The translations under genes and the position numbers were made by a program. A model generated the notes under the pieces. That model was given only the letters and a program-made list of their open reading frames with translations. It did not search any database and had not been told where the DNA came from. Shown here piece after piece: positions 4,053 to 58,700 of a stretch of 64,000 bases of DNA. Position 1 is the stretch's first letter, and each line of letters opens with the position of its first letter. The stretch is from a virus (taxonomy: Duplodnaviria > Caudoviricetes): IMG/VR virus record IMGVR_UViG_3300025892_000008; one strand, given 5' to 3'.

Positions 4053-4058
4053 ATTGTT

Positions 4059-4944: not shown

Positions 4945-4983
4945 GATGTCTCCAATAAATATAGTAGTATTTAATGGTTTAGA

Positions 4984-5382: not shown

Positions 5383-5383
5383 A

Positions 5384-11299: not shown

Positions 11300-11335
11300 A
11301 GTAGTATTTATGTGCGTAGTTAATGGGAGATAAAA

Positions 11336-12664: not shown

Positions 12665-12665
12665 A

Positions 12666-40063: not shown

Positions 40064-41586
40064 TATACTAAGCTCGCCCAGCCACCGTTTTCGTATACCT
40101 GTGCTTTGTTCAACGTAGTGTCATATATCATATCACCGTTTGCAGATGTTAATGCATTCTTTTCTGTTGTAGTAAAACTTGGTAATCTAAATGGAGCACC
40201 GGTAACTCTTACACCGTCTGTGGTTGTAAGTGTTATTGTACTTGCACTTGTTAAGTTAGTAACACCAAGTCCAGCAGTTAATGATGCACTTATGTTAGGA
40301 ACAGTTAATGTATTAGTAGTACTGTTGTACGTAAAATCACTGTCGCCGGTAAATGCACCTGCATTATTAAATTGTACTTCAGTTGTACTGCCGCCTGGTG
40401 CACCTGTGTTTGCCGCCCAGGCATAATCTGAACCGTTCCAACTTAGTACATAACCACTTGTAGGGTTTGATTGATTTAGATGTGCATCAACATCTGTGTT
40501 TGCATATCCATCTGTGATACCATACCCTGCGAGTGTAGTTGGTTTAGTTGTTAATGAAGCAAACGCTCCATCAAACGCATCTGTGATACCATACCCTGCT
40601 ATTGTAGTTGGTTTACTAGTAATTGCAGAGAAAGCAGGAATAGCATCTGTTATTCCATATCCTGCTATTGTAGTAGGCTTACCTGTTAAATCAGCAAAGG
40701 CTGTCGATGCCGACACATCGCCAAACGAGAAGTTACCAGCACCGTCTGTTTTCAGTGCCTGTCCGTTTGTTCCGTCTGCAATACCTAATCCTAATAGTGT
40801 TCCTGGAGCAGGAGCAGCAGGTTGTACCCATTGACTGCTATCAGTATCTTGTACATACACATATAGTTTTGCACTTGTGCTATTATACCAAATATCTCCT
40901 TGTGTAGGACTGCTAGGAGCAGTATCAGACACTGCAAGACTTGCGCCTCCGCCGCCGGCACCTGGCTCGGCTACAGTTACACTATTCCCCATACCACTAT
41001 GATTTTTACACCATATATAAAGTGTTGATGGAGTGTTACTTGTAATTGTTATCTGTACAGAACGTGTAGTTGCAGTGGCAAACTTTGCCCAATATTGTGT
41101 TTTGTTTACAGTAACTCCATCTATTATATAAAGAACGTTATTAAGATATGCAGTACCGCTACCTAATTCGCCGTTAGCATCATCTGAACTAAAGTTTAAA
41201 GGATGTTGGTTTAATGTTGTTCCGTTACTGTTAGGAAAATATAAATTTGTTAAATCTGTTTGATCAAATACATATGTATAACCAACAACTAGTGTTAGTT
41301 CAGGATTTTCAACTCCGTTATAATAATATACATTTGCTGTATCTCCAGCATTTCTTGCAACTGTTGTACTAAAAGTAACTGTTGCAACACCTGAAGATGT
41401 AATTTGTTTTGCTACGTTTGTAGGTGTTAGAATATGTGTTCCGCCAATGTTGGAACCATCGAATATTCTAAGTGATTGATTATCCTTATCGAAGAAAATT
41501 TCACCTCGAGAGCCTGATTTTCTATCAAGATAATCTTCATCTCTAGGTACTATTCTTACGCCAGGAAAAATTGGAATTAGTGACAT
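40063..41586 (-). CDS. Tail fibre-like structural protein
   Basis: KPTT(I/L)AGYGITD repeats, VSDTAPSSP..GDIWYNS, YIWCKNHSGMG, QFNNAGAF.G, NGDMIYDTT. Confidence 0.75.
   Translation of the reverse strand: MSLIPIFPGVRIVPRDEDYLDRKSGSRGEIFFDKDNQSLRIFDGSNIGGTHILTPTNVAKQITSSGVATVTFSTTVARNAGDTANVYYYNGVENPELTLVVGYTYVFDQTDLTNLYFPNSNGTTLNQHPLNFSSDDANGELGSGTAYLNNVLYIIDGVTVNKTQYWAKFATATTRSVQITITSNTPSTLYIWCKNHSGMGNSVTVAEPGAGGGGASLAVSDTAPSSPTQGDIWYNSTSAKLYVYVQDTDSSQWVQPAAPAPGTLLGLGIADGTNGQALKTDGAGNFSFGDVSASTAFADLTGKPTTIAGYGITDAIPAFSAITSKPTTIAGYGITDAFDGAFASLTTKPTTLAGYGITDGYANTDVDAHLNQSNPTSGYVLSWNGSDYAWAANTGAPGGSTTEVQFNNAGAFTGDSDFTYNSTTNTLTVPNISASLTAGLGVTNLTSASTITLTTTDGVRVTGAPFRLPSFTTTEKNALTSANGDMIYDTTLNKAQVYENGGWASLV
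40507..40699 (-). repeat. Three tandem KPTT(I/L)AGYGITD fibre repeats
   Basis: Visible at both protein and DNA level (catctgtgataccataccctgc recurs). Confidence 0.85.
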
Positions 41587-41684
41587 ATTTTATATTCTCT
41601 CCGTTACCATAATATTTATCCATATGCGTCATTATTATTTTTTGTGGGTTACAGTAACTAGATAAATAATAAACTACACATATA

Positions 41685-42464
41685 ATGGATAAAATGCATA
41701 CACGTTTAGAAGGAAAAATTAAAAAAGGTTGGGGCTATGAATTAATATGGGCCACTAATGAAAAGTACTGTGGAAAAATTATGGTATTTGAAAAAGTAGG
41801 TGCTAAATTTAGCATGCATTTTCATAAAGAAAAAGAAGAAACATGGTTTGTAAATTCGGGTAAATTTTTGCTTAAATGGATTGATACTAAAGATGCAACG
41901 GTACACACAAAAGAATTAGTAGAAGGCGACAAATGGCATAATCCTCCTTTACAGCCACATCAACTAGAGGCACTTGAAGAAATGAGTGAGATATTTGAAG
42001 TAAGCACAGCCGACAGTGTCGAAGACAACTACAGAGTTTTTCCAGGTAGCAGTCAGCAGTCAGACAAAAAAATTATTGTAAATGGTAGTTTTGATATTAT
42101 TCATAAAGGGCATATTGAATTATTAAACTATGCAAAATCATTAGGGGATCATTTGTTAGTTGCTATAGATAGTGATAATAGAATTAAACAATTAAAAGGT
42201 TCAGACAGACCTATTAATTCTTTAGATGAAAGACTAAACTTACTATCTAATCTAAAAGCAGTTGATGATATTTCTTATTTTGATTCAGAACAAGAACTAG
42301 TAGATATTATAAAAAAGTATAATCCTGATATAATGGTAAAAGGCAGTGATTATAAAAATCAAAGAATTGTTGGCAAGGAATATTGCAAAGCAATCGAATT
42401 CTATGAGATAAATGATGGTTATTCAACAACAAAAAAATTACAAGATATTATTAATCGGGGATAG
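41685..42464 (+). CDS. hldC: Fusion of cupin and D-glycero-beta-D-manno-heptose 1-phosphate adenylyltransferase (RfaE domain II/HldC-like)
   Basis: KKGWGYE...SMHFH..KEETW cupin; NGSFDIIHKGH, IDSD.RIK.LKG.DRPIN, VKGSDY, YSTT. Confidence 0.8.
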   Translation: MDKMHTRLEGKIKKGWGYELIWATNEKYCGKIMVFEKVGAKFSMHFHKEKEETWFVNSGKFLLKWIDTKDATVHTKELVEGDKWHNPPLQPHQLEALEEMSEIFEVSTADSVEDNYRVFPGSSQQSDKKIIVNGSFDIIHKGHIELLNYAKSLGDHLLVAIDSDNRIKQLKGSDRPINSLDERLNLLSNLKAVDDISYFDSEQELVDIIKKYNPDIMVKGSDYKNQRIVGKEYCKAIEFYEINDGYSTTKKLQDIINRG

Positions 42465-43167
42465 TTGTACTGACGAGTACCATTATGGTAGTACCGATCG
42501 TATAAGTCCCGAAGCACCCGTTCCTGTATTTCAATATAAAAATACAAAAACAAATCCTGGCATGGCTGCTAATGTTAATGAAAACTTATTAGCATTTGGG
42601 TGCGATGTAGAGTTTGTTACCAACAAAGAACAAATAACTAAATCAAGATATATTGATTACAGATCAGGACAGCATTTAATAAGAGTTGACAAAGAAGACA
42701 AAGTCAAATCTTGCAACGTTGAATTTCATAATTTAGACTATGATGCTATAATAATAAGTGACTATAACAAAGGATTTGTAACTGAAGATTTAATTATAAG
42801 TCTACGTAGTAAATTTAAAGGACCTGTATTTGTTGATACTAAAAAACTTTATCTTGATAAATTTGAAGGCTGCATACTTAAAATAAACGATCTTGAATAT
42901 AATCGTGCAAAAACCTTTTGTAGCGATTTAATAGTAACAAAAGGTAAACAAGGTGCTACATACAAAGGTAATACTTATAATGCACCTGTAGTTGAAGTTC
43001 ACGATGTATGCGGTGCCGGTGATACATTTTTATCTGTGCTTGCATATTCATATTTAAACTGCAACAACATTGAACAGTCAATTATGCACGCTAACAATGC
43101 CGCTGCACTATCTGTACAGCATAGCGGAGTATACGTGCTTACAGAAGAGGATTTAAAACAAATATGA
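42412..43167 (+). CDS. hldA: Heptose 7-phosphate kinase (RfaE domain I/HldA, PfkB family)
   Basis: IGDSCTDEY, RISPEAPVPV, GMAANV, SDYNKG, DVCGAGDTF; start codon uncertain. Confidence 0.88.
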   Translation: MMVIQQQKNYKILLIGDSCTDEYHYGSTDRISPEAPVPVFQYKNTKTNPGMAANVNENLLAFGCDVEFVTNKEQITKSRYIDYRSGQHLIRVDKEDKVKSCNVEFHNLDYDAIIISDYNKGFVTEDLIISLRSKFKGPVFVDTKKLYLDKFEGCILKINDLEYNRAKTFCSDLIVTKGKQGATYKGNTYNAPVVEVHDVCGAGDTFLSVLAYSYLNCNNIEQSIMHANNAAALSVQHSGVYVLTEEDLKQI

Positions 43168-43976
43168 TAATATTAGTTACAGGAGATACTGGGTTTATTG
43201 GAAGACATCTAATTGATAAACTAAAAACAGAACACGAAGTTCATGGCTATGATTATAATGAAAATCATAAACCTTGTATTGACGGATATGATTGGGTAAT
43301 ACATCTAGGAGCAATATCAGATACTACAGAAAGAGATGTTGACAAGATTATGTTACAAAACTATGAATTTTCTAAATGGATATTCAAAGAATGTAATTCT
43401 AAAGGTGTAAATTTTCAATATGCATCTAGTGCAAGTGTATATGGACCATATGAAAAGTTTGGAGAAGATGATCCTAAACAACCTCAGAGCCCTTATGCTT
43501 GGAGCAAGTATCTATTTGATAGATGGATATTGCAGCAAAAACATAACGTATGTGTACAGGGTATGAGATATTTTAATGTATACGGACCTAGAGAAGAACA
43601 CAAGGGCACACAGGCAAGTCCTGTAACAAAGTTTACAAAACAAGCAAAGGAAGAAGGTGTTATTACTTTGTTTGAAAACAGTGACAAGTACCTAAGAGAT
43701 TTTATCTTTGTAGGCGATGTGTGTGACATACATGAGCAAATGATGCTGCATGTTAAAAAGTCTGGCTTGTACAATATTGGTACAGGCTCTGCAACTAGTT
43801 TCCAAACAGTTGCAGAAATAATTGCAAAAAAATATAATGCAGATATAAAGTATATTCCAATGCCAGAGGAATTACAAGGGCAATATCAAGAATATACCTG
43901 TGCAGATATAACTAAGTTACTAAATATTTTTGATATACAGTTTAAAACTGTAAAAGAATATATTGAAGGTGTCTAA
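43164..43976 (+). CDS. hldD: ADP-L-glycero-D-manno-heptose 6-epimerase
   Basis: TG..GFIG, HLGAISDTTE, YASSASVYG, YAWSK, RYFNVYGPREEHKG, RDFIFV.DV, YQEYTCADI. Confidence 0.88.
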   Translation: MIILVTGDTGFIGRHLIDKLKTEHEVHGYDYNENHKPCIDGYDWVIHLGAISDTTERDVDKIMLQNYEFSKWIFKECNSKGVNFQYASSASVYGPYEKFGEDDPKQPQSPYAWSKYLFDRWILQQKHNVCVQGMRYFNVYGPREEHKGTQASPVTKFTKQAKEEGVITLFENSDKYLRDFIFVGDVCDIHEQMMLHVKKSGLYNIGTGSATSFQTVAEIIAKKYNADIKYIPMPEELQGQYQEYTCADITKLLNIFDIQFKTVKEYIEGV

Positions 43977-44596
43977 ACAAAAGATGCTTTTATACCTGCA
44001 GACGATGTAATTTCTTTACATGCTGCATTTTCTATTTCAGGATCTGGTAAAGAACTAGCAAATGCCCACAAGTTATCAAACACCATAACTTTTCTTGCAA
44101 GGTTTTTGTAGGTAAATTTCTTTAACTTTTTTTCTGTTTCTTCTCCATACCCGGTACGAACTAATATAGGTGTTGCTCCTATTTTTTCTGCTGCTTTTAA
44201 ATCTGTTAATTTATCTCCAACATAAAATCCGCCTTTAAATTTTAAGTTGCATTCAGATTCTGCTTTTTTAAACATACCAATATTTGGTTTAGCAAACATA
44301 TCGTTCTTCTGGCTTGTATGACTATAGTAAATTCCATCTATGCTATCACAACCTGCTTCTCCTAGTAAATTAAGCATGTAATCATGTACAACAGCAACTT
44401 CTTCAGTAGTCATTATACCTTTACTAACTCCGGCTTGATTAGTTAGTACAACAATATTGTAACCTTTTTTTCTAAGAAGTGTTACCGCTTCTATACTATT
44501 TTCTATAGGTTTAAATTGCATAGGATGAGTAACATAAGTTCCAAGATCTTCGTTTATTGTTCCGTCTCTATCTAATCCTATAGTAATATTATTCAT
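43973..44596 (-). CDS. gmhB: D,D-heptose 1,7-bisphosphate phosphatase (HAD family)
   Basis: LDRDGTIN, TNQAGV, KPNIGM, VGDKLTDLKAA, LVRTGYG. Confidence 0.85.
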   Translation of the reverse strand: MNNITIGLDRDGTINEDLGTYVTHPMQFKPIENSIEAVTLLRKKGYNIVVLTNQAGVSKGIMTTEEVAVVHDYMLNLLGEAGCDSIDGIYYSHTSQKNDMFAKPNIGMFKKAESECNLKFKGGFYVGDKLTDLKAAEKIGATPILVRTGYGEETEKKLKKFTYKNLARKVMVFDNLWAFASSLPDPEIENAACKEITSSAGIKASFV

Positions 44597-45119
44597 CTAT
44601 TGATATATCCATGTTCCATGAAATAATTGTTTTTGTTTCTTCTGTATTATTAACAGGAGCTCTATGTATAACCCAACTAGGAAATGTAACTATATCTCCT
44701 TCGTGTACGTCAAATGTATGTGTATCTTTAGTTAACGGATTAATCCATTCTGTTTGTGCATCTTCTGGCAAGTTTACGTAATAAACATTTGTAAAGTTGT
44801 TACTGTGTGTATGCCATGCGTGCTTGCCGCCTTTTGCATATTGTTGAAACCAAATTTCAGTAATGCCAAATGTTTTATATCCCATTTCTTCACACCACTT
44901 ATTAATGTGCGTAGAAAGAGAAGGATTTATTAGTTTCAACCACTCTCTATCTCCATCATATCTTGCAGTATTCCAATCACATTTAACAATATCACTGTCG
45001 GGTGCAGTCATATGTTCTGCATTTTCTTGTGCATGAATAGCATCTAGTACTTGCTGTTTTAGTTGATTGTGTTCCTTAAATGGTCTTACAGTAATAGGAA
45101 ACGGAATAATATCATCCAT
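44589..45119 (-). CDS. 2OG-Fe(II) oxygenase (TIGR02466-like)
   Basis: WFQQY...HAWHTH, VYYV, EGDIVTFPSW..H, IISWN. Confidence 0.8.
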   Translation of the reverse strand: MDDIIPFPITVRPFKEHNQLKQQVLDAIHAQENAEHMTAPDSDIVKCDWNTARYDGDREWLKLINPSLSTHINKWCEEMGYKTFGITEIWFQQYAKGGKHAWHTHSNNFTNVYYVNLPEDAQTEWINPLTKDTHTFDVHEGDIVTFPSWVIHRAPVNNTEETKTIISWNMDISIDE

Positions 45120-45733
45120 TAGTATAAGTTACCTTTTCTTTTAACAATTATATTTGATGAAAACACAACTCTAGGTTCAGATGTTTGATTAAAATGTACA
45201 TAGTGTTCTAAACAAGAAGGAAACATTAGTAATAATCCTTCTTTCATTTCAGGGTAGAAAGCATTAGGATAATCATTCATAGGATCTAATTCTAAATACT
45301 TTAAATGGTTTGATAAGTTAGGTGTCCTAAAAACAAATTGTCCTGCTTCTGGACTAGGCTGTTTTAAAATTACAACACAAGAAAACGCTGGCACGTTAGT
45401 TGTAATATGATCATGTAATTGTTGATGATCGTGTTGCTCATGTACGTTATACCAAGTCTCTATGTCTACACTATAAGGAAATTTAAACAAATATGAATCA
45501 ATATAATCTTGTATATAAGGTGATGGTAGTAATGTATCATTCCATTTTTTAAAAAAATCTGAATCGTCCCAACGTTGAGATAGATTCTTAGAAATTTTAC
45601 TAGCATTATTAGAACTTCCTGTATTACTTCCATCTAAAATTAACGGTAGGTAATAATCCTGTAAACTTTTAAGATCCTGTGGTTCTAATTCTTTTATACC
45701 AACTGGATATCCTTCAAGTGAAAGTTTTAACAT
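45119..45733 (-). CDS. 2OG-Fe(II) oxygenase (TIGR02466-like)
   Basis: WYNVH...QQLHDH, FSCV, EGLLLMFPSCLEH, RVVFSSN. Confidence 0.8.
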   Translation of the reverse strand: MLKLSLEGYPVGIKELEPQDLKSLQDYYLPLILDGSNTGSSNNASKISKNLSQRWDDSDFFKKWNDTLLPSPYIQDYIDSYLFKFPYSVDIETWYNVHEQHDHQQLHDHITTNVPAFSCVVILKQPSPEAGQFVFRTPNLSNHLKYLELDPMNDYPNAFYPEMKEGLLLMFPSCLEHYVHFNQTSEPRVVFSSNIIVKRKGNLY

Positions 45734-46461
45734 GTTTCTAATATTTCCTTTGTCATTATACTAGTTTTAAATCCAGATGTTAAGTCAATACTTTCGCCTG
45801 TATTAAAAAAATTAATTATTTTACTTGCTAAAATTTTATGATTAACTTCAGAAAAATGATTAAATCTATTGTCACCGGTTTTTTCATGGTATGCTATAGA
45901 AGTTTTTTCATTGTCAAATTCTGATCCGGATGCTTCACACAAATTCCCTTCTATACCTTGAATATTGTGAAAGCCTGGTAAAATTAAGCACTTAATATTT
46001 TGTTCTCCATATAATTTTGTTCTAAGAGTTAATGCATCAAGTAGTGTATGATAATGCAAAATGAGGCGCCTTTCTGAATATAAATGTCGTTTATACATTT
46101 CTAATGCAGCATACTCTTGTTCAGTAATATCTACACCTGGAGTCATTTGTGTTGCCATATGAACAGCCATATATGGTTTATTTTCAAAGAACCATTCTCT
46201 ATATAAATTAGTTAATTGTATTATAACACAGTCTCCTGATTTGAACAACAATTCTTTTTCACGTAATTGCTGATAAATGTAATCATTAGAGCAGCCTAAA
46301 ATAGCATAGTTAGTATGAGGATCGTTACTTATAGCATCACTTACTATAGTTGTCCAACTTTTTTCTAAAGGTAGATATGTTACTTCAGTCTTATCTGGAC
46401 CAAATACTTCGTCCATATGGTTCTGGGGGATTGAAAAACTATCTCCAAAAATATGCAACAT
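45727..46461 (-). CDS. SGNH/GDSL-like protein
   Basis: IFGDSF, GCSND, NHFSEVNH.ILA. Confidence 0.55.
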   Translation of the reverse strand: MLHIFGDSFSIPQNHMDEVFGPDKTEVTYLPLEKSWTTIVSDAISNDPHTNYAILGCSNDYIYQQLREKELLFKSGDCVIIQLTNLYREWFFENKPYMAVHMATQMTPGVDITEQEYAALEMYKRHLYSERRLILHYHTLLDALTLRTKLYGEQNIKCLILPGFHNIQGIEGNLCEASGSEFDNEKTSIAYHEKTGDNRFNHFSEVNHKILASKIINFFNTGESIDLTSGFKTSIMTKEILETC

Positions 46462-47081
46462 TATACTGCGCCTGTTTCTAACAAGATATTAAAAGACATA
46501 CTAATTCTATCTCCGTTAGTTTTGTTTTCATTAACACTGTGGTCTAAAAATCCTGGAAACAAAATTAGTCTACCTTGCTCAGGCGAAAAAGAATTTTCAT
46601 GTGCAATAGAACTTCCAATAGGATTGCATTTTAACGCTTTCAGTGTATTTCTAAAAACAATATCTCCGTCATCTCCACTAGTTTTAAACCAATATACTCC
46701 ACTAATATGGGCATTACCATGATCATGAATATGCGAGGAAAGTCCAGGCTTGTTTAAAGTTAACCATGAAGAAGTCATCGCTGCTTTGTAGGCAGGTTGG
46801 ACATTCATTGCTGCCATATAATTTACACAGTGGTGCATAATAGTTTCACCAGTTGTTTTCATATTTTCTAATTGCAATAAATGCTCAAAAAAGTCGCCTT
46901 GGTTAGATAGATATTGTGAAGATGAACCCCAATTTGGATTTTGTCCCCAACTTCCTTCGTTATATAGTTTATCAACTATAGGCTGTAATTCGTTTTGCAC
47001 ATCTGTATATGCTTGGTTTTCTAATTTATAGGTATATAGAGGTGTTGGAAATAATTGAAAAATTTGTCCTTCGACATCCAT
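46461..47081 (-). CDS. 2OG-Fe(II) oxygenase (TIGR02466-like)
   Basis: LFPTP, SWLT, HIHDH, ISGVYW, GRLILFPGFLDHSV, RISMSFN. Confidence 0.88.
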   Translation of the reverse strand: MDVEGQIFQLFPTPLYTYKLENQAYTDVQNELQPIVDKLYNEGSWGQNPNWGSSSQYLSNQGDFFEHLLQLENMKTTGETIMHHCVNYMAAMNVQPAYKAAMTSSWLTLNKPGLSSHIHDHGNAHISGVYWFKTSGDDGDIVFRNTLKALKCNPIGSSIAHENSFSPEQGRLILFPGFLDHSVNENKTNGDRISMSFNILLETGAV

Positions 47082-47083
47082 AG

Positions 47084-48910
47084 TTACTGCCTTTCATTAT
47101 GATCTATATTTACTAGCATTTTCGTTGCAGGAAAATAGATATAATTTATTCCTGAATTATAAAGAGTACGCATAGCATCGTCAATAGTTTCAACTAGTGG
47201 CTCGCCGCCTAAATTAAAACTAGTATTAAACAATGCAGGTACTCCTGTTTGGTTTTTAAATTCTTTAATCAAATTGTACCAATGTTTGTTTTGTTCTTTA
47301 GTAACTGTTTGTATTCTACATGTATCGTCTACGTGTATAACTGCTGGTATTTTTTCTTTTACGCCAGGCTGACAATTGACAGCATACATCATACTAGGTG
47401 AATCTTCCATCCCACGTAAATCAAACCAATCATGTACATCATCCTGTAATACAGTTGCAGCAAACGGTCTAAAATATTCACGCTTCTTAACCAAGTTAAC
47501 AAAATCTTTGCCGTTTGGATCTGTTGGGTCATACATTAAAGAACGATTACCTAATGCACGAGGACCGCTTTCTCCTCTTTCTTGATATAGTGCTACAATA
47601 TTTTTGTTTCTAATAGTATCTATAACTTGTTTATAATCTACATCTGTTGTTACATTACCATTGTATTTCTTTGCAGTTTCTCTAATTATATCTTCAGTAA
47701 TATTTTGTACTGGTCCTAAAAATAAGTTTTCATCTTTAGTTCTTAATTTGTTATCTTGAGATGTAAGATAATAATGATAAAATGCTGCGCCCATTGCAGT
47801 ACCTGCATCATTGCTAACAGGTTCTACATATATTTTTACACCTTCTGGTAAATGTTTTAAAAAGAAATAATTAGCAACACAATTTAAAGCATAGCCGCCG
47901 CTGATAACAATATTTTTATTACCAGTGCGTTCAATTGATTTTAATATTAAATCAAGTACTAGTTGTTGAGATTCTACTTGAACATTATATGCCATGTTTC
48001 TGCGTGATGGAAGTAGTGTAACATCTTCTCTGTCAGATTTTCTAAGCAGTTCTTGAATTCTGTCTTGTTCATCTTGGTTGTCTGGATCTTTAGCAGATCG
48101 AATTATATCACTCGGATCATATATTCTATCTCTAATCTCTGGAAATTCAGATTCATCTACCCATGCTCCATTAGGATATGTACAAGTAAATAAATCTTTG
48201 TTGCCACCAAAAGCATTAGTGTAAATCTTAGGTGCTTTGTTTGGTTCACCATATGGAAATAGTCCCATTGTTTTACCGGCTTCAATTGAATCAAATCCGC
48301 AAAATCTAGTTACTGCTTCGTATGCTTTAACAATACCTGCTTTATCGTTTATCATTACTTCTGTAGCACTACCGTCGGCATTATAGTGCTCAGTTCTCCA
48401 AGGCCCGTTTCCTCCAAAATGCTTATAAATTTCTGTAAACGTTGCAGGATATGCGCAATCGTATATACTTTCAACCTCAAACATAGTTTGTCCATCTGGT
48501 CGTTCTACAAATGTTCCTGCTCCATCAACAATTATAGCACTTGCCTTTTCAAATCCTGATCTATAAAATGCTAGTGCAGCATGACTTCTGTGATGTTGCG
48601 CATGATATTTAACAACCTGTGTTTCAGGGTCTTCAATTAATCTTAATTTTCTAGCAAGTGCAGTATATACATCTTGACGGACGTAATCGTTTAGAGGTTC
48701 GTCTGCGTCTTGCGTATGAGATATTGCAAGATAATCAATCTTATCTGTATAATCTAAAATTTTAATCATACTTGCAAGAGGTCCTCCGTCGTATTTGTAA
48801 CGGGATAATCTTTCTTCTTCAATTGCAAATACAATTTCGCCGTCTTTTAAAAGACAAACACCTGCATTGTGCCCTCTAGCAATTCCTGCAATGTAGCCTG
48901 TTTTTCTCAT
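47084..48910 (-). CDS. O-carbamoyltransferase (NodU/CmcH/TobZ family)
   Basis: GHNAG, EEERLSR.K, HHRSHA, VDGAG, AGKTMGL.PYG, GGYALNC, E.GPRALGNRS, REYFRPFA, NTSFNL.GEP. Confidence 0.93.
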   Translation of the reverse strand: MRKTGYIAGIARGHNAGVCLLKDGEIVFAIEEERLSRYKYDGGPLASMIKILDYTDKIDYLAISHTQDADEPLNDYVRQDVYTALARKLRLIEDPETQVVKYHAQHHRSHAALAFYRSGFEKASAIIVDGAGTFVERPDGQTMFEVESIYDCAYPATFTEIYKHFGGNGPWRTEHYNADGSATEVMINDKAGIVKAYEAVTRFCGFDSIEAGKTMGLFPYGEPNKAPKIYTNAFGGNKDLFTCTYPNGAWVDESEFPEIRDRIYDPSDIIRSAKDPDNQDEQDRIQELLRKSDREDVTLLPSRRNMAYNVQVESQQLVLDLILKSIERTGNKNIVISGGYALNCVANYFFLKHLPEGVKIYVEPVSNDAGTAMGAAFYHYYLTSQDNKLRTKDENLFLGPVQNITEDIIRETAKKYNGNVTTDVDYKQVIDTIRNKNIVALYQERGESGPRALGNRSLMYDPTDPNGKDFVNLVKKREYFRPFAATVLQDDVHDWFDLRGMEDSPSMMYAVNCQPGVKEKIPAVIHVDDTCRIQTVTKEQNKHWYNLIKEFKNQTGVPALFNTSFNLGGEPLVETIDDAMRTLYNSGINYIYFPATKMLVNIDHNERQ

Positions 48911-49842
48911 TATTGTTTTCCTAAAGTATCTTTAATTTGTTTTACAATTTTTTTCTTAGTGTCTGAGCTCAGTTTCATTAAGTTTTCATTCTGTCTATCA
49001 ATCCTAATATCTATTGCTACTCTTAAAGGAGAATATTTTCTTTCACCTATTCCGTTGTCTATAATTTTTAGTGTAGTGCTTTCCGGATAGGAAATGTTTT
49101 CAGGAAATGTACTACCTATAACTACTGTGCCAGGTTTTTTAAGAGCGTGAACAACATGTTGTCCTACTGAATCACAACCTAAGAAATAATCCGCAGCATT
49201 GATAATTGCAGTCCATTGTAATAAACTTACTTCTTCTGGAAACATTACATTAAGATTTTTATCAGTTGGTATTTTCATAGAGCTCATTAGTATGACAGCA
49301 TAATCTTTATTCAATTCTTCAAGTAAGTCTATAATATCATCTACTTCAAACGACCTGCCGCTTTCATCAACAATTACACCGCCATGTATTGTAGCAGTAG
49401 ATCCAAATGGTTGAAATATTATAACTTTATCTTTTTTGAAATGTCTTTTTGCTTCTGCTACTAGCTCTTCTCCTGTTGCAATATCTTTTTTTCCTACAAA
49501 GAGTTCGTTATATTCTTTTGTTTCTGGAATTGTTTCAGGTGGATAATCATAGTTAATCAACATGTCAAAGGATTGAACTAGATTGGCTCGTTGAGTAAAA
49601 TACGCATTAAGTTTGTAAGGTTCAGGTGTAATGATTTCTCTATCTTTCAATTTGTCAAAAAGATTAGGATCATTAGCAGGAAAGGTATTGTTTACTAATA
49701 TTTTGCTAGTAAGATATAAATCAATCCAACCTTCTACAATAATAGGTGCTGTTGGATCTATATTTTTTAAATGATATTCTAGTGCTGGAATCGCACAAAG
49801 AACGCGACCTGCGCCACCGTTAATAAAGAATGCTTTTTTCAT
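48910..49842 (-). CDS. GT-B glycosyltransferase, GT9 (heptosyltransferase)-like
   Basis: INGGAGRVLCAIPAL (compare GG.GD), IIFQPFG, IINAADYFLGCDSVGQH..HAL.KP..V. Confidence 0.6.
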   Translation of the reverse strand: MKKAFFINGGAGRVLCAIPALEYHLKNIDPTAPIIVEGWIDLYLTSKILVNNTFPANDPNLFDKLKDREIITPEPYKLNAYFTQRANLVQSFDMLINYDYPPETIPETKEYNELFVGKKDIATGEELVAEAKRHFKKDKVIIFQPFGSTATIHGGVIVDESGRSFEVDDIIDLLEELNKDYAVILMSSMKIPTDKNLNVMFPEEVSLLQWTAIINAADYFLGCDSVGQHVVHALKKPGTVVIGSTFPENISYPESTTLKIIDNGIGERKYSPLRVAIDIRIDRQNENLMKLSSDTKKKIVKQIKDTLGKQ

Positions 49843-49921
49843 TAATATTATAACCTTTGCTAAATGCTGTAGTTATAATATTTATTTTATAGATTTATGC
49901 TAAGGTAGTAATGTGAATAGT

Positions 49922-50647
49922 TTAATTTACACCGTTTGGAAGCATGCTAATAGCATCATCATCGTCACTAGTTCTTTCAGCGATCATTGTAACTCTAACA
50001 TTTTCATCATTAAAGTTTGGATCAGGAGCATCGTCAGGTGCTAATGGAAATCTTACCAAATTTCCAGGAACTCCATCCCACGTTACTGGCATATCTCTTA
50101 GTTTTTGTCTATATTCTCGCCATTGAGTTTTTAATGAGTCTGGCATATCTTCTGCTAGTTTGCCATCGGTGTTTGCTAATCGCAGATTTCTTTCTTGTCT
50201 TAAGAAATCCCAACCTTCAACATAGGCTGCTCTATCCATCGGTGCCCATTCTAAAGGTTTTTTATAATCATCGTATAATGCATATTCGTTATAAACTTCA
50301 CAAATGTGTGTAGGATCAGGAATGATAGCGTTTGGTTGATCACTAGGACCAACTGCTACTTCGTATACTTTTGGTTCTTCTATACCGCCCCACAATAAAG
50401 CAATTTTAATTGTGTTAACATCAGTATCTGCCTTTAATATTTCTCTTCTTAGGTTTTGTGGAAGTGGACAATCAGGCTCTTCTTCATGTGAATGACACTG
50501 TTCTAAGTATCCTGTTTCTTTATCAATCCATAGTACGATCTCTGCCGGACCGTTATAATGCATAGTACTAGTTTTACCCAGATCAGTTGTTGATGAATAC
50601 ATAGTATCTGGTAAACTGTAAGTTAGTGTTTTTTGTATATTTGCCAT
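49922..50647 (-). CDS. Tail fibre assembly chaperone-like protein
   Basis: C-terminal LRQERNLRL..TD...W..YRQ.LRDMP motif. Confidence 0.75.
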   Translation of the reverse strand: MANIQKTLTYSLPDTMYSSTTDLGKTSTMHYNGPAEIVLWIDKETGYLEQCHSHEEEPDCPLPQNLRREILKADTDVNTIKIALLWGGIEEPKVYEVAVGPSDQPNAIIPDPTHICEVYNEYALYDDYKKPLEWAPMDRAAYVEGWDFLRQERNLRLANTDGKLAEDMPDSLKTQWREYRQKLRDMPVTWDGVPGNLVRFPLAPDDAPDPNFNDENVRVTMIAERTSDDDDAISMLPNGVN

Positions 50648-50656
50648 GTTTAATCC

Positions 50657-51484
50657 TTAACTGTATGTTACTCTTACTAATCCGCCTGCACCGAATGATC
50701 CCCAACAAGCATTACTTGAACCAGTACCGTGTCCTGCTCCACCACCGCCTGGAAATGCTGCGTGTGCTGAACAACAAGCCAAGTTACCTGTACACCAGTG
50801 TTTGCCGCCTACTCCGTGTGGTGCTGCAAATGGTCCTGAAGGGCCGCCTGCTACCGAGAAGTAATCAGCACAACAGTTGTACTGTCTGTTCATTGAACCT
50901 GCTGTTCCTCTAAATGACATATCAGCGCCATAAGTTGCTTCGTTACATGCATTTGCTTGCCAACTACTGTTATATAAACCTCTGTTACACTGAACGTTAC
51001 CAATATGACAGTTATAACAGTTTGAAGATTTATCCCAAACTGTAGGACCGCCCATGCCGCCTGTTGCACAGAAATTACTTAAACCTGTACCATTAACATA
51101 ACTTCTGCAACCATGACGGTTGTTTACGTTACATCTACAACAACAACTACATGCTGAAGATCCAGCAGCACAAATTGTGTATGATGTGCCATCGCTAAAT
51201 CCGTGTACTGATTTTTGTAGTGTTTTTACAGCGTAGTTTCCGCCCTGTCCACCAATTCCGTTATCATAGTCACCACCTGATGAGCCACCTGGGCCTCCAC
51301 CTGATAGTATTTCAAATTTAATTGATGTAGTTCCTGCTGGTACAGACCAACTACAACATCTTCCGCCATTACATGGTGTCCACCAATCGCCGTCATATAC
51401 ATAAAATTCGTAACCTTCGGCAATTTTACATTGATGTTGATTGTTTGAATAAACTATACCTTTGTCTGATAATTGTACTGGCAT
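50657..51484 (-). CDS. Gly- and Cys-rich fibre tip/adhesin-like protein
   Basis: WSVPAG...I.FEILSGGG.GG, further polyGly motifs, GAGGLVRVTY C-terminus; 22 Cys. Confidence 0.65.
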   Translation of the reverse strand: MPVQLSDKGIVYSNNQHQCKIAEGYEFYVYDGDWWTPCNGGRCCSWSVPAGTTSIKFEILSGGGPGGSSGGDYDNGIGGQGGNYAVKTLQKSVHGFSDGTSYTICAAGSSACSCCCRCNVNNRHGCRSYVNGTGLSNFCATGGMGGPTVWDKSSNCYNCHIGNVQCNRGLYNSSWQANACNEATYGADMSFRGTAGSMNRQYNCCADYFSVAGGPSGPFAAPHGVGGKHWCTGNLACCSAHAAFPGGGGAGHGTGSSNACWGSFGAGGLVRVTYS

Positions 51485-52356
51485 TATGCGTCTCCTCGTT
51501 TAATCATATCTAATTCTTCTTTTAAACTTTTTATAGATTCTATTAGCAGTGGAATAATTCTCTCATAATTTACAGCAAGATATCCATCTTCTCTTTCTAC
51601 TACTGCTGATGGAAGAACTTCTTGTACTTCTTGGGCAACAACCCCGTAGTCACGTTCTGTTCTTTCTGGATGCATCTCTTGCGCAATACTGTTCCAGTTA
51701 TATTCGTATCCTGAAATCTTTGCAATTTTTTCTAAACTGCCATCAATTTTTTCAAGGTTTTCTTTTAGTCTTTTGTCTGAAGATGCATATGAATATATAT
51801 CTCCACCTACATACATTGCTCCTGAAACTCCAACGCCGCCTGTTACTACTAATGTTCCAGTAGTTTTACTTGTTGACGCTGTGTTACCACCTAGTGTCAT
51901 TTTTCCTGTACTTGGCTGGAATGCTAATTTTGTTGTTGATACGTCTGTAACTGTTAGAAACCCTGAAGTTTGTGTTGTGATAACAGGGTAATATGTTGCA
52001 CTTGCTGCTGTTTCGTCAGTGTGTGTTGCACCTGCTGCTTGCCATGATAACACTCCACTACCGTTTGATACTAGAGCATATCCTGATACTGCTGCATCTG
52101 CTGCTGGTAAAGTCCATGTAACATCACTTGCAATAGTTGTAGGTGCTTTAAAAGCAACATAGTTTGAATCATCTGAGTCACCAAATCTTAAATCTGATTG
52201 TAACCCTAAATGCGTATTTGCTTGTATGTTAACTCTACCAGATCCTTGAGGATCAATAGTAATGTCTAGACCTGGTGCTGCGCTAATAGTAGTATTCGTA
52301 ATGTTAATTCCACCGAATGCACCACCAACTTCACCTGTTGTTATCTTTCTTGCCAT
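51484..52356 (-). CDS. Tail fibre protein with C-terminal intramolecular chaperone (peptidase S74)
   Basis: SDKRLKEN, Y.W, GVVAQEVQEVLP.AV, V.Y..IIPLLIESIKSL. Confidence 0.85.
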   Translation of the reverse strand: MARKITTGEVGGAFGGINITNTTISAAPGLDITIDPQGSGRVNIQANTHLGLQSDLRFGDSDDSNYVAFKAPTTIASDVTWTLPAADAAVSGYALVSNGSGVLSWQAAGATHTDETAASATYYPVITTQTSGFLTVTDVSTTKLAFQPSTGKMTLGGNTASTSKTTGTLVVTGGVGVSGAMYVGGDIYSYASSDKRLKENLEKIDGSLEKIAKISGYEYNWNSIAQEMHPERTERDYGVVAQEVQEVLPSAVVEREDGYLAVNYERIIPLLIESIKSLKEELDMIKRGDA

Positions 52357-52385: not shown

Positions 52386-52715
52386 TTATACAGTTGCTGT
52401 CTCAATACCCATTGCCACTGCGCTGATTCCAACGGTAGCAGCATAGATACTAATAATTTTACCTGTGTCTAAAACAAGTCCTGTTCTTTCTAACACACCA
52501 TTTGCTGCAATGCTTGTACCGTATTCGATAAACTCGCTATTTGCTGGTGCACCTGGACCTGCTGTTGTTGTAATTGCTACTCTAACTTGAATAGCACTAC
52601 TAGTTCTATTAGCAAGGCTAATTGAAGCCACTGCAAATGTATCTGCCGGAACTGTGTATAAATCAGTGTACGCTAACGCACCTAAATCTACTGCTCCTAA
52701 TCTTCCTGTTGCCAT
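52386..52715 (-). CDS. Small virion structural protein (109 aa)
   Basis: GGAG SD, CTAAATA upstream; LYTVPA, ERTGLVL. Confidence 0.7.
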   Translation of the reverse strand: MATGRLGAVDLGALAYTDLYTVPADTFAVASISLANRTSSAIQVRVAITTTAGPGAPANSEFIEYGTSIAANGVLERTGLVLDTGKIISIYAATVGISAVAMGIETATV

Positions 52716-52737: not shown

Positions 52738-55700
52738 TTAGTTCAAAAAGTAATTATATGCTAAAGGAAGGCCCACAACGCCACCTTTAAAGTTGAATTT
52801 AGCATTCATTTCAATTACACCGCCTGTTGTAGTAGTAATAGTGTTGTTTTGGATTGTAATAAATCCAGCCGTTACACTGTTAACGTTAAGAGAAGCACCA
52901 CCGCCACCAATTTGTGAACTGATGTACGATTTAATTGCTCTCTGCGTTGGAACAATATTATCACTATTAGCACTAAAGAATGGATCTGTACTAAACTCTT
53001 GTACACTTGCTGAGTTACCACCTAGTGTAACTTCACCTAGTGTAAGTTCTTGTAGTCCTGAAATATTAAATGCATCAGCATTCAATGTTGCAACACCAGT
53101 TGATTGTTCAATTGTAAACAAGTCGCCAACTCTAAAGTTACCGTCTTGGTCAGTTGATGTAAAGAATACTCTACCACCGTTGTTATCTTTTGTTTCATTT
53201 GCTTGATCTGGCAACTGAGTTGGTGTATTAGGATAGTTAGTAGTAGTAAATCCACCAGTACCAACATCTAGGAAATCGTGTCCTGTCAAACGTACCTGTG
53301 AATATCTAATTCTAGTAGTTACTGTTGCTCCATCTGGTGGTGTATCAAATACTGTTACATCTGGTGCAATTTGTAAGAATGCTGTATAACTTCCATCATA
53401 TGAACCTAGTAGTGAAATAACCTGTACCAGTTTAAATGTTCTTTCTGGCAAGTGTCCAAACACAACGTTTGATCCTACTGCTGGAATTTTTGAAAGTCTT
53501 CTTACAGCAACAAACTGTCCGCTTTGGAATAAGTCTGCAAAACCGTTACCACTTAACAAGTCTGCACTTGCTGAAGTATATCCTGTTCCTCTATTAGTAA
53601 AGGATGGGCAACCTAATGCACCTTTACCGATTCTAACTTGTGTAGGTGCTTCGTATGTATTATTAGGATCTGTAATAGTTAATGTAGGTGCTGTGCTATA
53701 TCCACTGCCTGGCTCTACAAGTCTAATTGCAAATATTTTTTCAGTTGCAACAAATGCTCTACCAGTAGTAGTTGCACCTGCTTTAATTTGCATTGCTCCG
53801 TTACCACTTCCTTGTCTAACTCCTAAGAAACTACCTACTTGCTGTGGATTACCAAATGCTGTTGCTACTAATCCATTGCTTTCTGCATGTGTTCTTGCAG
53901 TCCAAACAATACCATCTGGTGATGTAGCATAATTTGCACCGTTACTTACTGCTACAAACATACCTTGTCCGTATTCAATATTAGACCATTGTGCTGTAGC
54001 CGGAAGTGTACTTGCTATCCATGTTACTCCACCGTCAATACTTACTGCGGCTACTGTTCCGTTTGTTGATGAAACTGCAACGAATCTGTTATTACCATAA
54101 GTTACACTGCTCCAGTTTGAGCTGCTTGGTAAAGTTGCTGCTGTCCATGTTACTCCAAGATCGCTGGAGTATGCTGCTGCTGTGCCGCCACTTGCTACTG
54201 CTACCCAGTATCCTTGACCGTATGCAATGCTTTCCCAAGTTGTTGCACTAGGTAATGTTCCTGGGGAAGTCCATGATACGCCGTTAGTTATTGACAGTGC
54301 AACTGCGTTTGTACCAGTTTTGATTGCCATAAAGTTACCAGCACCGTATCCAATTGCGTTCCAAGTTCCTGTGCTTGGTAAATTACCACCTGCTACATAA
54401 GTTGCACCAGCGTCTAATGAATAAGCAACATCATCAACACCACTGCCTCCTGCTATAGCAACTATTGCTGCTGCATTTTCTCTTGCTTCACCTGCAATTG
54501 TTGTAAATGATCCTACACCAGTAGCAACAAATGTTGTTCCTGTAACAATTGAAGTTGATCCAATTGATAACCAAGGTGTGTCACCTGGTGTTGTAATTGT
54601 GTAAGAACGTCCTACAACAAAATTTCCTGCACTAATAACTCTTTGTAAGCGTCCTGCAGCAATTCCTGTCCAAGTTGTACTTACTGGTAATGCTGTGCCT
54701 GCAGTAAATGTAGATGCATCTAATGATGCGTTTGTAGTTGTACCACTTGCACTACTAATTGCAACAAATGTTCCACCTCGTGCTGTACCATCCTTATCAA
54801 ATGCTAGGATTGCACCAGAGGAAGCATTAACTGATGTAATTGTAATTGTAATGTTGTTTGCGCCGGTTGTTCCGCCAACTGCTGCACCGTTAAATGTTAA
54901 AACTTCATTTGCAGCATAGCCAGTTCCGCCAGCAATTAAATCAACTCTATACTTGGTACCTTTTGCAGTAACATTAAATGTTGCGCCAGATCCAGATCCT
55001 GTTGTTGAGTTTTGTGAAATAGTTGCATAAGTGTTATAGAACTCACTATATGTAATTCCTGTCCAAGTTGTACTTCCATTAGTAGTTCTAGCAGTAGTAC
55101 TATGAGTTGGTGCAGTAAACGCTACTTGAGGTTCAATTGTATAAGTTGTTGATGCATCAGGTGCTGCAATAGTAGTACCTGGTACTATATGATCCCAGCC
55201 TGCTGCGCCTGTTGAAGGTTTTGTAACAGTTGCTACTTTAGTACCTGAGTTATATGTTGCAATATTACCAAACTGCCCAACACCTGTACCGCCATCTAGG
55301 TAAACTCTCATACCTATATAAGCCAAAGATGTTTCAGAGTCAGTTGCAGCAATTGTAATTTGTGATGTTGTTCCGCCCTGTGCAGTGTTTGAATTTGTAA
55401 TGTATCCAAACCCACCGTAGTTTCCTGCTGCTTCTGGTGCTGATGTTGAATCATCAACATTATCAAGAAGTCTTACTTCGAATACAGAGTCATCTCTAAA
55501 TTCTTTATCTTGTTCTGCTGTTGCATTTGATCCTGCACCAAACAGTCCCCATTGAGTTTCAGTGTATTCTGAACCAGCATTAGTAAATTCAAAGTTAAGA
55601 ATTTTATTAGCAGCGTCAGTCATAACACTTCCAACTGTTGATTCAAACTGTAATCTGTTATCAACAATCGCTGTTCCAGGAGTTTCAGTTGAATCAAAAC

Positions 55701-58700
55701 CTTCTGCTACTGAACCAAACGATCCGTATGAGTTGTTACCGTTTGTACCTCTAATTCTTCCACCTTCTGTAGCCAAGTAACCAATGTGTGAGTAATATGT
55801 AAACACTGATACAAGCTCTGCTCTACCATTGTTTGCTACCCAAGCACCAATACCATCACTAATTAATTGTGTAAAGTCGTTTGATACTATTGAATCGTTA
55901 CCGCCTGCGTGTAATGCTCCATCAATTTTTTGTCCAATTGCAGCATTACCAAATGTTGCAACGTTTTGTACATATGGTGAACGTGCAATAATCCAAGTAC
56001 GGAAGTCATCTACTCCCCAACCTGGATCTAATGAAGCGTAAGCACCTGCTGATACTCTAGATGTTCCATATTCGTTTGGTGGTAATACGTCTCCACGTAA
56101 TCCGTCAAGTGTCATATTACGTAAACCAGTTCCGTTACGTAAGTAGAAGAAATCTTCTTCCATGCTACCTGTAACTGAATTGGCATAATATCTTGCGCAA
56201 TATCTTGATTTATAATTTGAAGACCATTGTAAATCCCATTTCATTGCATCAATATATTTGTCTACATCTCTAGCACATGCTGTTTCGCTATAAACTATTT
56301 CAACACCCATTGTACCGCCTGATGCTGTTGATAATCCAAGAGCATTAGCACCGTATCTAGTTGTGCTTACAGTAAACGATGTTGCATTAATAATTTCTTT
56401 TACATAATAAGTTGTGCCTGTTGCTAATCCACCAATTACAGTTCCTGTAAATTGTATTGCAACATTTCTTACTAGCCAACTAGTATCAGTTATTGTTAAA
56501 GAATTTGTACCAGCGTCTGTTGCTGTTGCAGTATCGCTAAATGTTTGATCGATATATGCAGCAACTTCTGCTTTAATAAATGCTCTATTTTCTTCAAGTT
56601 TTAATCTAGCATAGTCTCTGTTTCTAACATCAGTTGCACAAACATCTCCTTCGTTTGTTGCACTAAAGAATATTGTGTCTAATTTATCCATCAATAATAC
56701 AACTCTTGCTGCGGCTGTTGCATCACTGTTTAAGTATGTTGCAGTATCAGCAGCAATTATTCTTGCTAGTTCTTTGAAAGACGCTCTAGTAGCGGCTTTT
56801 TGTCCTTTAGTGTATACATCGCTTGAAGTACTACGCAAATATGCTATTGCTGCAATGTGTGTTGCAAAATTTGTTGAGTCTGCGTTAGATGCTCCAGCAC
56901 CTAACATAAAGTCAAACATAACTGCTTCGAGAATTAATCTTGTATCTCTTTTACACTTAGCAGAATCATATGTAAGTGTAGGAAAGTTGTTAGTAATGTA
57001 AGTAGTAACCAGTGTTGCAAGGGCCTCTTGCTGCGCATCTAAGGTCTCTGCAGCGGTGATAAGTGCTGTTGTTGAACTTACAGCATTAGTAACTGCTGGA
57101 TAGTTCTCAACGTGAGCTGGTACACTTAGTCCTGTTGCATCTGTTAATGTAACAACACTTCCACCAAATGTTAAACTAACTGTGAAAGTAGTTGCTGCTG
57201 GTGTGCTTATAATCCAATATTTTGTATTTGCTACTAAGTTATTTGAACTTTCTAAAGGAATAAATGCATCGCCAACTTGTAATCCGTGTGCTGCACTTGT
57301 TGTAATAACATTTGATGCTGTTGTAGTTACAGTAACAAACGGTAAGTCTGCTCCTGTTGAATCTCCAGCAAGTGTATTAAGTATAATATCAAAGTTATCT
57401 GATACAAATGTTGCGGGTGTAGCACCTGCATCTGAATTCAGATAACGTGGAGTATTAGTTTGTAAAGGTGTAATTGCTTGGTTCCTTACAATTTGTCCTA
57501 ATAATGTTTTTAAGTAATTGTATGCTGCAATAGTCTGTGTAACTGCATTACTATTCAATGCACTTGTAGAACTTTCTCCATCCCAATATGCTTTTGCTGC
57601 ATTTAGTGTTTGATAATTTCCACCATAAGTTAAATCATAACTTAAAGCATCTACAATGTAACCAACATCTTGTCTACATTTAGTTTTACTGTATTTTAAA
57701 GTTGAATAGTTATTTGTAATATACTGAATAACTTCTTCTTGTAGGAATTTTTTATTTTCAGTAACGTTTTCTTTAGCGGTACCATAACCTGCCAAGTAAC
57801 CCGCATTGTATCCTGTTGGCTCTGTTAAATTGGTTGTATGTTTTACACCAAGTTTAAAATCAATTTGCTCCATGATTACATCGGCTAACTTCGCTGTAAG
57901 TGCTGGTGTTTCGGTATCGTCTGCTACAGGCCATGTTTGGTCTTGTGTAGTTGTGTTTCCTGTAGTAGGAGTTACTGTTGTACCTTGTACAACATTGTCA
58001 ATGAATCCTTTCAAGTGTTTCAAAGTTTCTATAGAGTAGTATGAATCAGTTATGTCAGTACCGCTTTCAGTTGCGTCAGCCGCATCAACGTTTACTGTTC
58101 TAACTTCATCACCTAATATACAAACTTCTGCTGGAACAATGATAGGTAATATTTCTTTGTACTGTCCTGCTTTTACATACACTAATGCATTAGGTACAAT
58201 TCTTTCTGGAATTGCACTTGTGTCGCCTGCTGTGACAGTATCTGTTACAATCTTTAATAGTGATGCTACAGATGTAGTAACACCTGTTTCAGTTACAAGA
58301 GTAGTGTTAAAGTATTGGTCTGCAACTGCTGTTGAGTCAGTACCATCTTGATATGCAACTGCTGGTGCTGTATTTGCTAATACATTACCCATAATTGTTT
58401 CTAGGTATGTGTATGCTGCTACAGACTGTTGAGCTTCTGCTGCAAGTCCTGCACCACCATAAACTTTATCTTCTGATGCTGCTGAAAATTCGCCATCTGC
58501 ACTAAATCCGTTAACAAAAGATAGTGCTGCTGCACGTACTTTTAAATTTCCGCCGTGTCCAAGATCCCAAATAATTCTATCAATTATAAAACCAACGTCT
58601 CTTTCACATTTGTATTCGTCGAAATCAAAACCGTTCCAAATACCAGAGCCGCCTGCGTTAGCAACTTGATATTGGATCCAACTTGAAGTTTCTCTTTGTA

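Follow-up and report, generated by a model that had tools for sequence, protein, structure and literature searches.

Why should a phage carry, between its tail fiber genes, a block of genes for making, transferring, and tailoring a sugar? The question is raised by a 64,000-nucleotide stretch of DNA (the window; IMG/VR virus record IMGVR_UViG_3300025892_000008), belonging to a marine, uncultured jumbo myovirus of the T4-like kind with terminase, tube, UvsX-like, and gp32-like genes and a sheath of 1139 aa, in which tail fiber or baseplate PHROG matches stand on both sides of the sugar genes. An earlier note, whose gene positions coincide exactly with the open reading frames (ORFs) in Table 1, had read these genes as a set that makes ADP-heptose, attaches heptose to the Ser/Thr-rich fibers of the virion, and then modifies these further. 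At the level of predicted function, our analysis supports a coherent set for donor synthesis, transfer, and tailoring: the best families of the donor genes are those of ADP-heptose enzymes, the putative transferase has a GT9 fold and donor motif, and the carbamoyltransferase is of the O-carbamoyl type. As to its purpose, our reading, a tentative one that may well prove wrong, is that of a late-expressed, phage-encoded glycan-decoration module which places a carbamoylated heptose on a virion recognition protein.

As we picture it, phage-made ADP-heptose would feed a divergent heptosyltransferase-like enzyme. A metal cupin fused to the HldC-like nucleotidyltransferase could provide the missing first step, from sedoheptulose-7-phosphate to heptose-7-phosphate, a parallel being the bifunctional PMI-GMP enzymes; the phage-specific GT9-fold transferase would move the heptose to an acceptor, and the TobZ/NodU-type enzyme would then O-carbamoylate the sugar, as on HepII of the lipopolysaccharide (LPS) core of Pseudomonas. 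An SGNH protein and three proteins of the PF13759 family may further tailor either the glycan or the acceptor. The latter would most probably be a virion host-recognition protein, by analogy with TibC and AAH, which act on adjacent adhesins, and the prime candidate is the Cys-rich, Gly-rich fiber-tip protein encoded two genes upstream of the transferase, with a chaperone gene between them. The identity of the donor, the order of the reactions, the role of the cupin and, above all, the acceptor are what we infer here.

Gene order around the cysteine-rich tip protein

We compared 160 loci, 80 of them centered on transferases closely related to that of the window (61-100% identity; the window clade) and 80 on transferases of the S-CAM1 type (38% identical). 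Within the window clade the order is invariant: the giant fiber gene is followed by p109, the S74 fiber, one to three Gly-rich proteins, the chaperone, the GT9-like transferase, the carbamoyltransferase, and oxygenase 3. The carbamoyltransferase gene comes directly after that of the transferase in all 65 evaluable loci of this clade and is itself directly followed by oxygenase 3 in every evaluable locus, and the Gly-rich adhesin and chaperone genes adjoin in 27/27. In the S-CAM1 clade the first recognized gene after the GT9-like one is that of the carbamoyltransferase (69 of 69 loci), sometimes with an unlabeled ORF between, and Gly-rich proteins adjoin in 50 of 53 loci, the other three having in that place proteins of 323-351 aa with 11-13% Cys. 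The chaperone/adhesin cassette is inverted, and lies downstream of the GT9-like and carbamoyltransferase genes, in nine evaluable loci of the S-CAM1 clade, where it is still adjacent to them; the adjacency has therefore survived rearrangement. In some loci of the same clade an additional ORF of 0.8-1.8 kb separates the GT9-like and carbamoyltransferase genes, or there are two carbamoyltransferase-like ORFs.

The tip protein itself, a member of the Gly_rich_2 family, has 22 Cys among its 275 residues in the window. Eighteen aligned homologs of 275-276 aa, with identities of 56-95%, have 20 invariant Cys, and to judge from these sequences the putative adhesin varies unusually little for a receptor-binding tip. 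A protein with at least 6% Cys stands beside the GT9-like gene in every one of the 79 evaluable loci, a tally that is identical with raw ORFs and with a greedy gene filter. Gly_rich_2 proteins encoded beside the GT9-like and carbamoyltransferase genes contain 8-13% Cys, whereas those without a GT9-like gene contain 0-1.8% (Syn9 at 30.6-32.2 kb, S-SM1 at 32.1-32.9 kb, and a second P-SSM2 locus at 109.8 kb). In a search that included a positive control, no member of the GT9-like family was found in Syn9, S-PM2, P-SSM4, P-HM1, or S-SM1; a tblastn search with the Gly-rich adhesin returned no matches, presumably through low-complexity filtering. The Ser/Thr-rich fibers originally proposed as the acceptor gained no support: Ser plus Thr make up an ordinary 19-27% of the fibers. 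The comparative signal lies in the Cys-rich, Gly-rich tips, which on their sequences appear the better acceptor candidates.

The linkage to fiber genes in relatives, on which the earlier note had staked its proposal, held in the 160 loci as well as in P-SSM2, S-CAM1, and Vibrio phage D505; of the four informative distant contigs, three show it too. In the 78-kb Vibrio phage the GT9-like homolog has as neighbors a 2109-aa protein on one side and a 1756-aa tail-tip protein on the other, with no heptose or carbamoyl genes near it; a related-loci search with this homolog brought up no relatives. The three metagenomic contigs (homologs 23-31% identical) have the GT9-like gene beside very large proteins or proteins with Collar or Mtd_N domains. 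Neither in these distant contexts nor on the fourth contig was a Cys-rich neighbor found.

The presumed timing of expression comes from late-promoter-like motifs. Of the 41 occurrences of [AC]TAAATA, 12 fall no more than 120 nt upstream of a gene start on the same strand, where about one would be expected from an even spread, an expectation that leaves the AT-rich composition of intergenic DNA uncontrolled. The motif precedes terminase, tube, sheath, and fiber genes as well as both sugar operons, and its distribution suggests that both operons are expressed late, in the virion phase.

Predicted donor synthesis, transfer, and tailoring

The description of the 310-aa protein as GT9-like stands by its fold and donor motif and falters at the Pfam threshold, its match to Pfam GT9 (PF01075) scoring 15.7 bits against a gathering threshold of 22, which a few members of its family pass weakly. 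That family, which appears to be mostly viral, comprises 1891 proteins at E <= 0.001, in 590 clusters at 50% identity. When the family was searched against PDB sequences, by single sequence or by profile, nothing useful emerged, and the informative comparisons were those of fold, made by VIA-align, and of hhalign to E. coli WaaC and WaaF. An AlphaFold model built from 27 homologs (pLDDT 86.6, pTM 0.86) matches 3tov with Z 20.1 (281 residues aligned, rmsd 3.8), WaaF with Z 20.0, TibC with Z 18.6, and WaaC with Z 18.1, compared with Z 11.5 for the best GT-B family outside GT9, and its top 16 matches among Swiss-Prot models are all LPS or lipooligosaccharide heptosyltransferases. Because enzymes of the LPS type and of the protein type are effectively tied, the fold leaves the acceptor unidentified. 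Among non-LPS proteins, the model also matches PnsB1, a GT9-like NDH subunit of plant chloroplasts (Z 17-18), and Caulobacter FlbA in its C-terminal part.

On the donor side, hhalign pairs D224-S225-x3-H229 of the phage protein with D261-T262..H266 of E. coli WaaC, and the D-S-x3-H residues are invariant in 41 representatives of the GT9-like family that are 23-50% identical. The N-terminal register is also common to both proteins (G12, V14, L15, P19, A20, L21), with Arg13 in the phage protein at the position of Asp13 in WaaC. This Asp is the proposed catalytic base, is found in all characterized heptosyltransferases, and when replaced (D13A) entails a 4688-fold loss of activity (PMC5713226); Asp110 of TibC was identified as the equivalent base by superposition on WaaC (PMC4358343). 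Since the catalytic Asp of the characterized heptosyltransferases is missing, the phage enzyme does not simply repeat the chemistry of AAH/TibC or WaaC. From sequence and model, the 310-aa protein is thus best described as GT9-like on its donor side, and as departing from GT9 in its Pfam score and its catalytic Asp. Its fold, its motif, and the linked hld genes point together to ADP-heptose as the probable donor. The predicted complex of the GT9-like and adhesin families scored 0.00 in two runs, a result that weighs neither for nor against binding.

The hldC-, hldA-, and hldD-type genes on the plus strand and the gmhB-type gene on the minus strand do converge as first described, with the correction that hldC carries a metal cupin as an N-terminal fusion. 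An ADP-heptose enzyme is the top NCBIfam family for all four, in every case below the equivalog cut-off. The C-terminal half of the cupin-HldC protein matches PF01467 (7.8e-19) and has as its best NCBIfam family, below cut-off, TIGR02199 (rfaE_dom_II, the HldC domain of HldE; 2e-36); the HxH..E..H ligands of its N-terminal cupin correspond, in alignment, to the Mn site of oxalate decarboxylase. The PfkB kinase matches best TIGR02198 (rfaE_dom_I, the HldA domain; 5e-44), and its sole PDB sequence match is Burkholderia HldA 4e84. The epimerase scores 252 bits against TIGR02197 (cut-off 274.6), aligns over its full length with E. coli HldD at 37% identity (E 3e-53), and has YxxxK and RYFNVYGPRE motifs. 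The HAD-IIIA protein is GmhB-like (NF006506, 3e-41), and its gene converges on that of the epimerase with a 4-nt overlap, the three plus-strand genes overlapping one another as well. By these matches the four genes are divergent, shortened phage versions of those for ADP-heptose enzymes, and HldA, GmhB, HldC, and HldD activities are predicted to be encoded.

The NodU-type carbamoyltransferase was correctly recognized: PF16861 (187 bits, 2e-55) and PF02543 (90 bits, 4e-25) are both above threshold, and the best PDB matches are the O-carbamoyltransferases 7xb6, NovN, GdmN, and TobZ (3e-50 to 5e-41), so that its sequence places it in the TobZ/NovN/GdmN O-carbamoyl type. The SGNH-like protein of 244 aa, which has no Pfam family, fits its label too. 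It has a near-invariant FGDSFS at residues 5-10, the block I G-D-S motif, and in its model (pLDDT 92.8) an SGNH fold, the top structural matches being all SGNH/GDSL enzymes (Z up to 9.8 over about 150 residues); D197, H202, and H208 are invariant, with a spacing unlike the block V DxxH. The three supposed 2OG-Fe(II) oxygenases all pass the threshold of PF13759 (2OG-Fe(II) oxygenases, TIGR02466), although these paralogs, with mutual identities of 18-26%, conserve H-x-H...H rather than the usual HxD/E...H, a pattern by which the family may bind metal through three His. The structures found for PF13759 were only 3bvc and 2rg4, from uncharacterized marine bacterial proteins. The tailoring roles given here to these three proteins and to the SGNH protein are guesses.

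The acceptor and the alternatives

Several points weigh against the decoration of a virion protein. Both sampled clades are of related T4-like phages, and hence the 160 loci are not independent. The hld genes are more loosely linked (within range in 18 of 27 and in 35 of 52 loci), and many relatives have none inside 8 kb. On one contig a 30%-identical homolog lies between thioredoxin and nrdB genes, in the vicinity of a dCMP deaminase gene and an HldC-like one, and not among fibers. The hypervariable “host recognition cluster” in which the module sits mixes fiber genes with unrelated auxiliary genes (PMC7029224), and the adjacency could for that reason partly reflect shared island ancestry. 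The position of the catalytic Asp is occupied by Arg or Lys in 40 of the 41 representatives of the transferase family, so that both activity and acceptor chemistry are uncertain. Finally, the pathway has no evident GmhA, the SIS-fold sedoheptulose-7-phosphate isomerase: the Pfam scan of the cassette and the ORFs flanking it gave no SIS match, some small ORFs of the window having been left unscanned, and no PF13580 match in three related fragments of 90-186 kb. A cupin isomerase in place of GmhA fits, given that the cupin and HldC are separate genes in P-SSM2 and S-CAM1 and that the window holds a second fusion of a nucleotidyltransferase with a PMI-type cupin (10523-11299); the cupin would presumably be the substitute. 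A 114-aa protein of P-SSM2 annotated as “phosphoheptose isomerase” has neither a Pfam match nor similarity to the HAD protein of the window, and was not used as evidence for GmhA.

A carbamoyl-heptose could instead be added during infection to host LPS or another outer-membrane glycan, so remodeling the envelope that superinfection would be blocked or the loss of progeny on cell debris prevented. This is the published reading of the “LPS genes” of cyanophages and pelagiphages (PMC3037559, PMC7029224), and it draws on the closest folds, which are LPS heptosyltransferases, and on the combination of heptose and carbamoyl chemistry, which matches the inner core of Pseudomonas. We consider it unlikely here, because the late-promoter-like context in a lytic phage would leave little time for envelope turnover, the Kdo-deprotonating residue of WaaC is missing in the GT9-like protein, and the tight, inversion-surviving coupling to Cys-rich tips would go unexplained. 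Cyanobacterial LPS, moreover, is reported to be without heptose and Kdo (PMC4515613), so that the hosts of the cultured relatives do not have the classical acceptor of GT9 enzymes. The host of the window phage is itself not taken to be cyanobacterial, since a search for psbA in the related fragments was negative.

Fiber and sugar genes might also merely share a hypervariable island with no function in common, as islands of this sort do mix fibers with auxiliary genes (PMC7029224, PMC3037559). The dispensable or distant hld genes of many relatives accord with this, as do Syn9 and S-SM1, which have Gly_rich_2 proteins and no GT9-like gene. We think it rather improbable in view of the order of adhesin, chaperone, GT9-like, and carbamoyltransferase genes, which holds without variation down to 38% identity and is retained after inversion, of the split between Cys-rich and Cys-poor tips, which tracks the presence of the GT9-like gene, and of the distant homologs, which are also found among tail genes. 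Equally, no protein need be glycosylated if the product is soluble, either a tailored nucleotide-heptose or a small heptose metabolite acting as cofactor, inhibitor of a host enzyme, or signal. TobZ, NovN, and GdmN tailor natural products, the oxygenase and esterase folds are ones typically met with in small-molecule pathways, and the GT9-like protein is without the usual catalytic base; the coupling of adhesin and chaperone would then be left without a reason, however, and in Vibrio phage D505 the GT9-like homolog stands beside tail proteins with neither heptose nor tailoring genes, and we judge a soluble product to be improbable.

The decoration of the fiber tip could take a different chemical form. 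The transferase has lost the Asp that activates a hydroxyl, and the carbamoyltransferase superfamily includes HypF, which S-carbamoylates a protein cysteine; it is conceivable, if something of a long shot, that one or both enzymes S-heptosylate or S-carbamoylate the fiber-tip proteins, with their 8-13% Cys. This would be a modification of a receptor-binding tip of a kind not described for any virus. Hypermodification of phage DNA bases with heptose or carbamoyl groups is very improbable: GT-B enzymes do glycosylate the DNA of T-even phages, one distant homolog lies among nucleotide-metabolism genes, and the window has a deoxynucleotide monophosphate kinase gene (30565-31182), but no thymidylate-synthase-like hydroxymethylase was found in the three related fragments of 90-186 kb and the module lies among late structural genes, not replication genes. 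The two alternatives raised in the earlier note, host LPS and DNA, are thus weakened by the promoter context, the missing Asp, the cyanobacterial LPS, and the late-gene position, yet each keeps a small probability.

The wider locus and its relation to known systems

The features of the locus are collected in Table 1. A nucleotide search with the cassette against 50,697 phage records gave no match, and the completeness estimated for the related 186-kb fragment is only 53%.

Table 1. Genes and promoter-like motifs of the sugar cassette and its flanks (positions within the window).
Feature	Position	Strand	Remark
507-aa fiber/baseplate-like protein	40063..41586	-	Opposite flank
Late-promoter-like ATAAATA	41662..41668	+	23 nt upstream of cupin-HldC start
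Cupin fused to HldC-like heptose-1-phosphate adenylyltransferase (predicted)	41685..42464	+	Cupin, residues ~10-120, HxH..E..H metal site; HldC-like, ~125-256
Short PfkB kinase, HldA-like (heptose-7-phosphate kinase)	42412..43167	+	
HldD-like ADP-heptose 6-epimerase	43164..43976	+	SDR, N-terminal deletion
GmhB-like HAD-IIIA heptose-1,7-bisphosphate phosphatase	43973..44596	-	
PF13759 oxygenase-like protein 1	44589..45119	-	
PF13759 oxygenase-like protein 2	45119..45733	-	
SGNH/GDSL-fold esterase or acyltransferase-like protein	45727..46461	-	244 aa
PF13759 oxygenase-like protein 3	46461..47081	-	
NodU/TobZ-type O-carbamoyltransferase	47084..48910	-	608 aa
GT9-fold phage-specific glycosyltransferase (putative)	48910..49842	-	310 aa; GGxGR replacing GD catalytic motif; D224-S225-x3-H229 donor motif
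Late-promoter-like ATAAATA	49879..49885	-	43 nt upstream of GT9-like start
Tail fiber assembly chaperone (Phage_tail_APC)	49922..50647	-	
Cys-rich (8%), Gly-rich fiber-tip adhesin-like protein (Gly_rich_2)	50657..51484	-	Candidate acceptor
Fiber segment with C-terminal S74 intramolecular chaperone	51484..52356	-	
109-aa fiber-associated protein	52386..52715	-	Syntenic in all relatives
2579-aa tail fiber protein	52738..60477	-	

Elsewhere in the window, a subtilase S8 domain (1e-25) occurs in an 834-aa protein encoded between fiber-like genes (37559-40063, minus strand), and P-SSM2 has a PF00082 protein, PSSM2_297, at the equivalent position. The deoxynucleotide monophosphate kinase at 30565-31182 (minus strand), which is T4 gp1-like (PF21448, 5e-14), lies among tail genes. 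A second cluster of sugar type (2850-13892, mostly on the minus strand) is situated between a helicase gene and the UvsX/gp32-like genes; besides the nucleotidyltransferase fused to a PMI-type cupin, it encodes a GT8-like protein (9053-9733), an asparagine-synthase-like amidotransferase (11336-12664) that is 46% identical to an S-SCSM1 protein, and a methyltransferase-like protein (13305-13892); a further seven ORFs there, of 259-400 aa, belong to no Pfam family.

The closest known counterpart of the cassette is the “LPS gene” cassette of the cyanomyoviruses (P-SSM2 PSSM2_307-313, T4-GC 302-308; S-CAM1 SXBG_00216-00222; S-SSM7, S-CAM3, Sf-FS3), which is also flanked by fibers and shares with the window, families and order alike, Cys-rich Gly-rich proteins, chaperone, GT9-like transferase, carbamoyltransferase, nucleotidyltransferase, kinase, cupin, and epimerase. 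The identities are only 38-53%, however, and the window, which comes from an uncultured jumbo phage, differs in its cupin-HldC fusion, its recognizable GmhB, its donor operon on the opposite strand, and the three PF13759 proteins and the SGNH protein between transferases and donor genes. The gene set has thus been known, as annotated cyanophage “LPS genes” of unexplained function, since 2005-2010, and Sullivan et al. 2010 noted that T4-GC 304, 305, 307, and 308 occur together and probably have linked functions (PMC3037559). What is new here is the replacement of the WaaC Asp by Arg throughout the GT9-like family, the gap in fold Z-score between GT9 and other GT-B enzymes, the loci with inverted cassettes, the contrast of Cys-rich and Cys-poor Gly_rich_2 proteins with its negative-control genomes, and the counter-example among nucleotide-metabolism genes.

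Among bacterial systems, WaaC and WaaF (CAZy GT9) share with the phage protein the GT-B fold (Z 18-20) and the D-[ST]-x3-H donor motif, but the phage protein has Arg for Asp13, a sub-threshold Pfam GT9 score, and a gene that is fiber-adjacent with late-type upstream motifs. The Pseudomonas LPS core likewise combines an ADP-heptose pathway with a carbamoyltransferase, WapO (PA5005), a putative enzyme to which the 7-O-carbamoylation of HepII has been attributed (PMC8005017). The best functional analogy is offered by TibC and AAH, GT9-fold enzymes (Z 18.6 for TibC) encoded beside the adhesins that they heptosylate with ADP-heptose, TibA and AIDA-I. Enzymes of this bacterial type are characterized by an N-terminal beta-barrel, a thumb formed by a beta-hairpin, and a four-Cys iron finger (PMC4358343); the phage protein, which aligns only to TibC residues 97-393, has no such beta-barrel, no iron finger (it has two Cys only), and no equivalent of Asp110, and its candidate substrate is a Cys/Gly-rich fiber tip rather than a beta-helix with Ser repeats. 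Phage glycosyltransferases that decorate the virion proteins of their own phage are described for the O-glycosylation of mycobacteriophages of the Che8 type (Freeman et al. 2023, cited in PMC12619734), with different glycosyltransferase families, sugars, hosts, and targets (the C-termini of capsid and tail-tube proteins); as far as that account extends, the system includes neither a phage-encoded donor pathway nor carbamoylation.

Should the decoration of a virion protein prove true, the cyanophage “LPS genes” would acquire a function, and a GT9-fold family of some 590 clusters at 50% identity would be working with no canonical catalytic Asp. Direct testing is possible in the cultured carriers P-SSM2, S-CAM1, and S-SSM7. 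If the fiber tip is indeed the target, this would be the first case of a heptosylated protein beyond the autotransporter adhesins and a virus-encoded glycosylation system, reaching from donor to acceptor, in phages of Gram-negative hosts, and it would add a layer to the determination of host range in some of the most abundant phages of the ocean.

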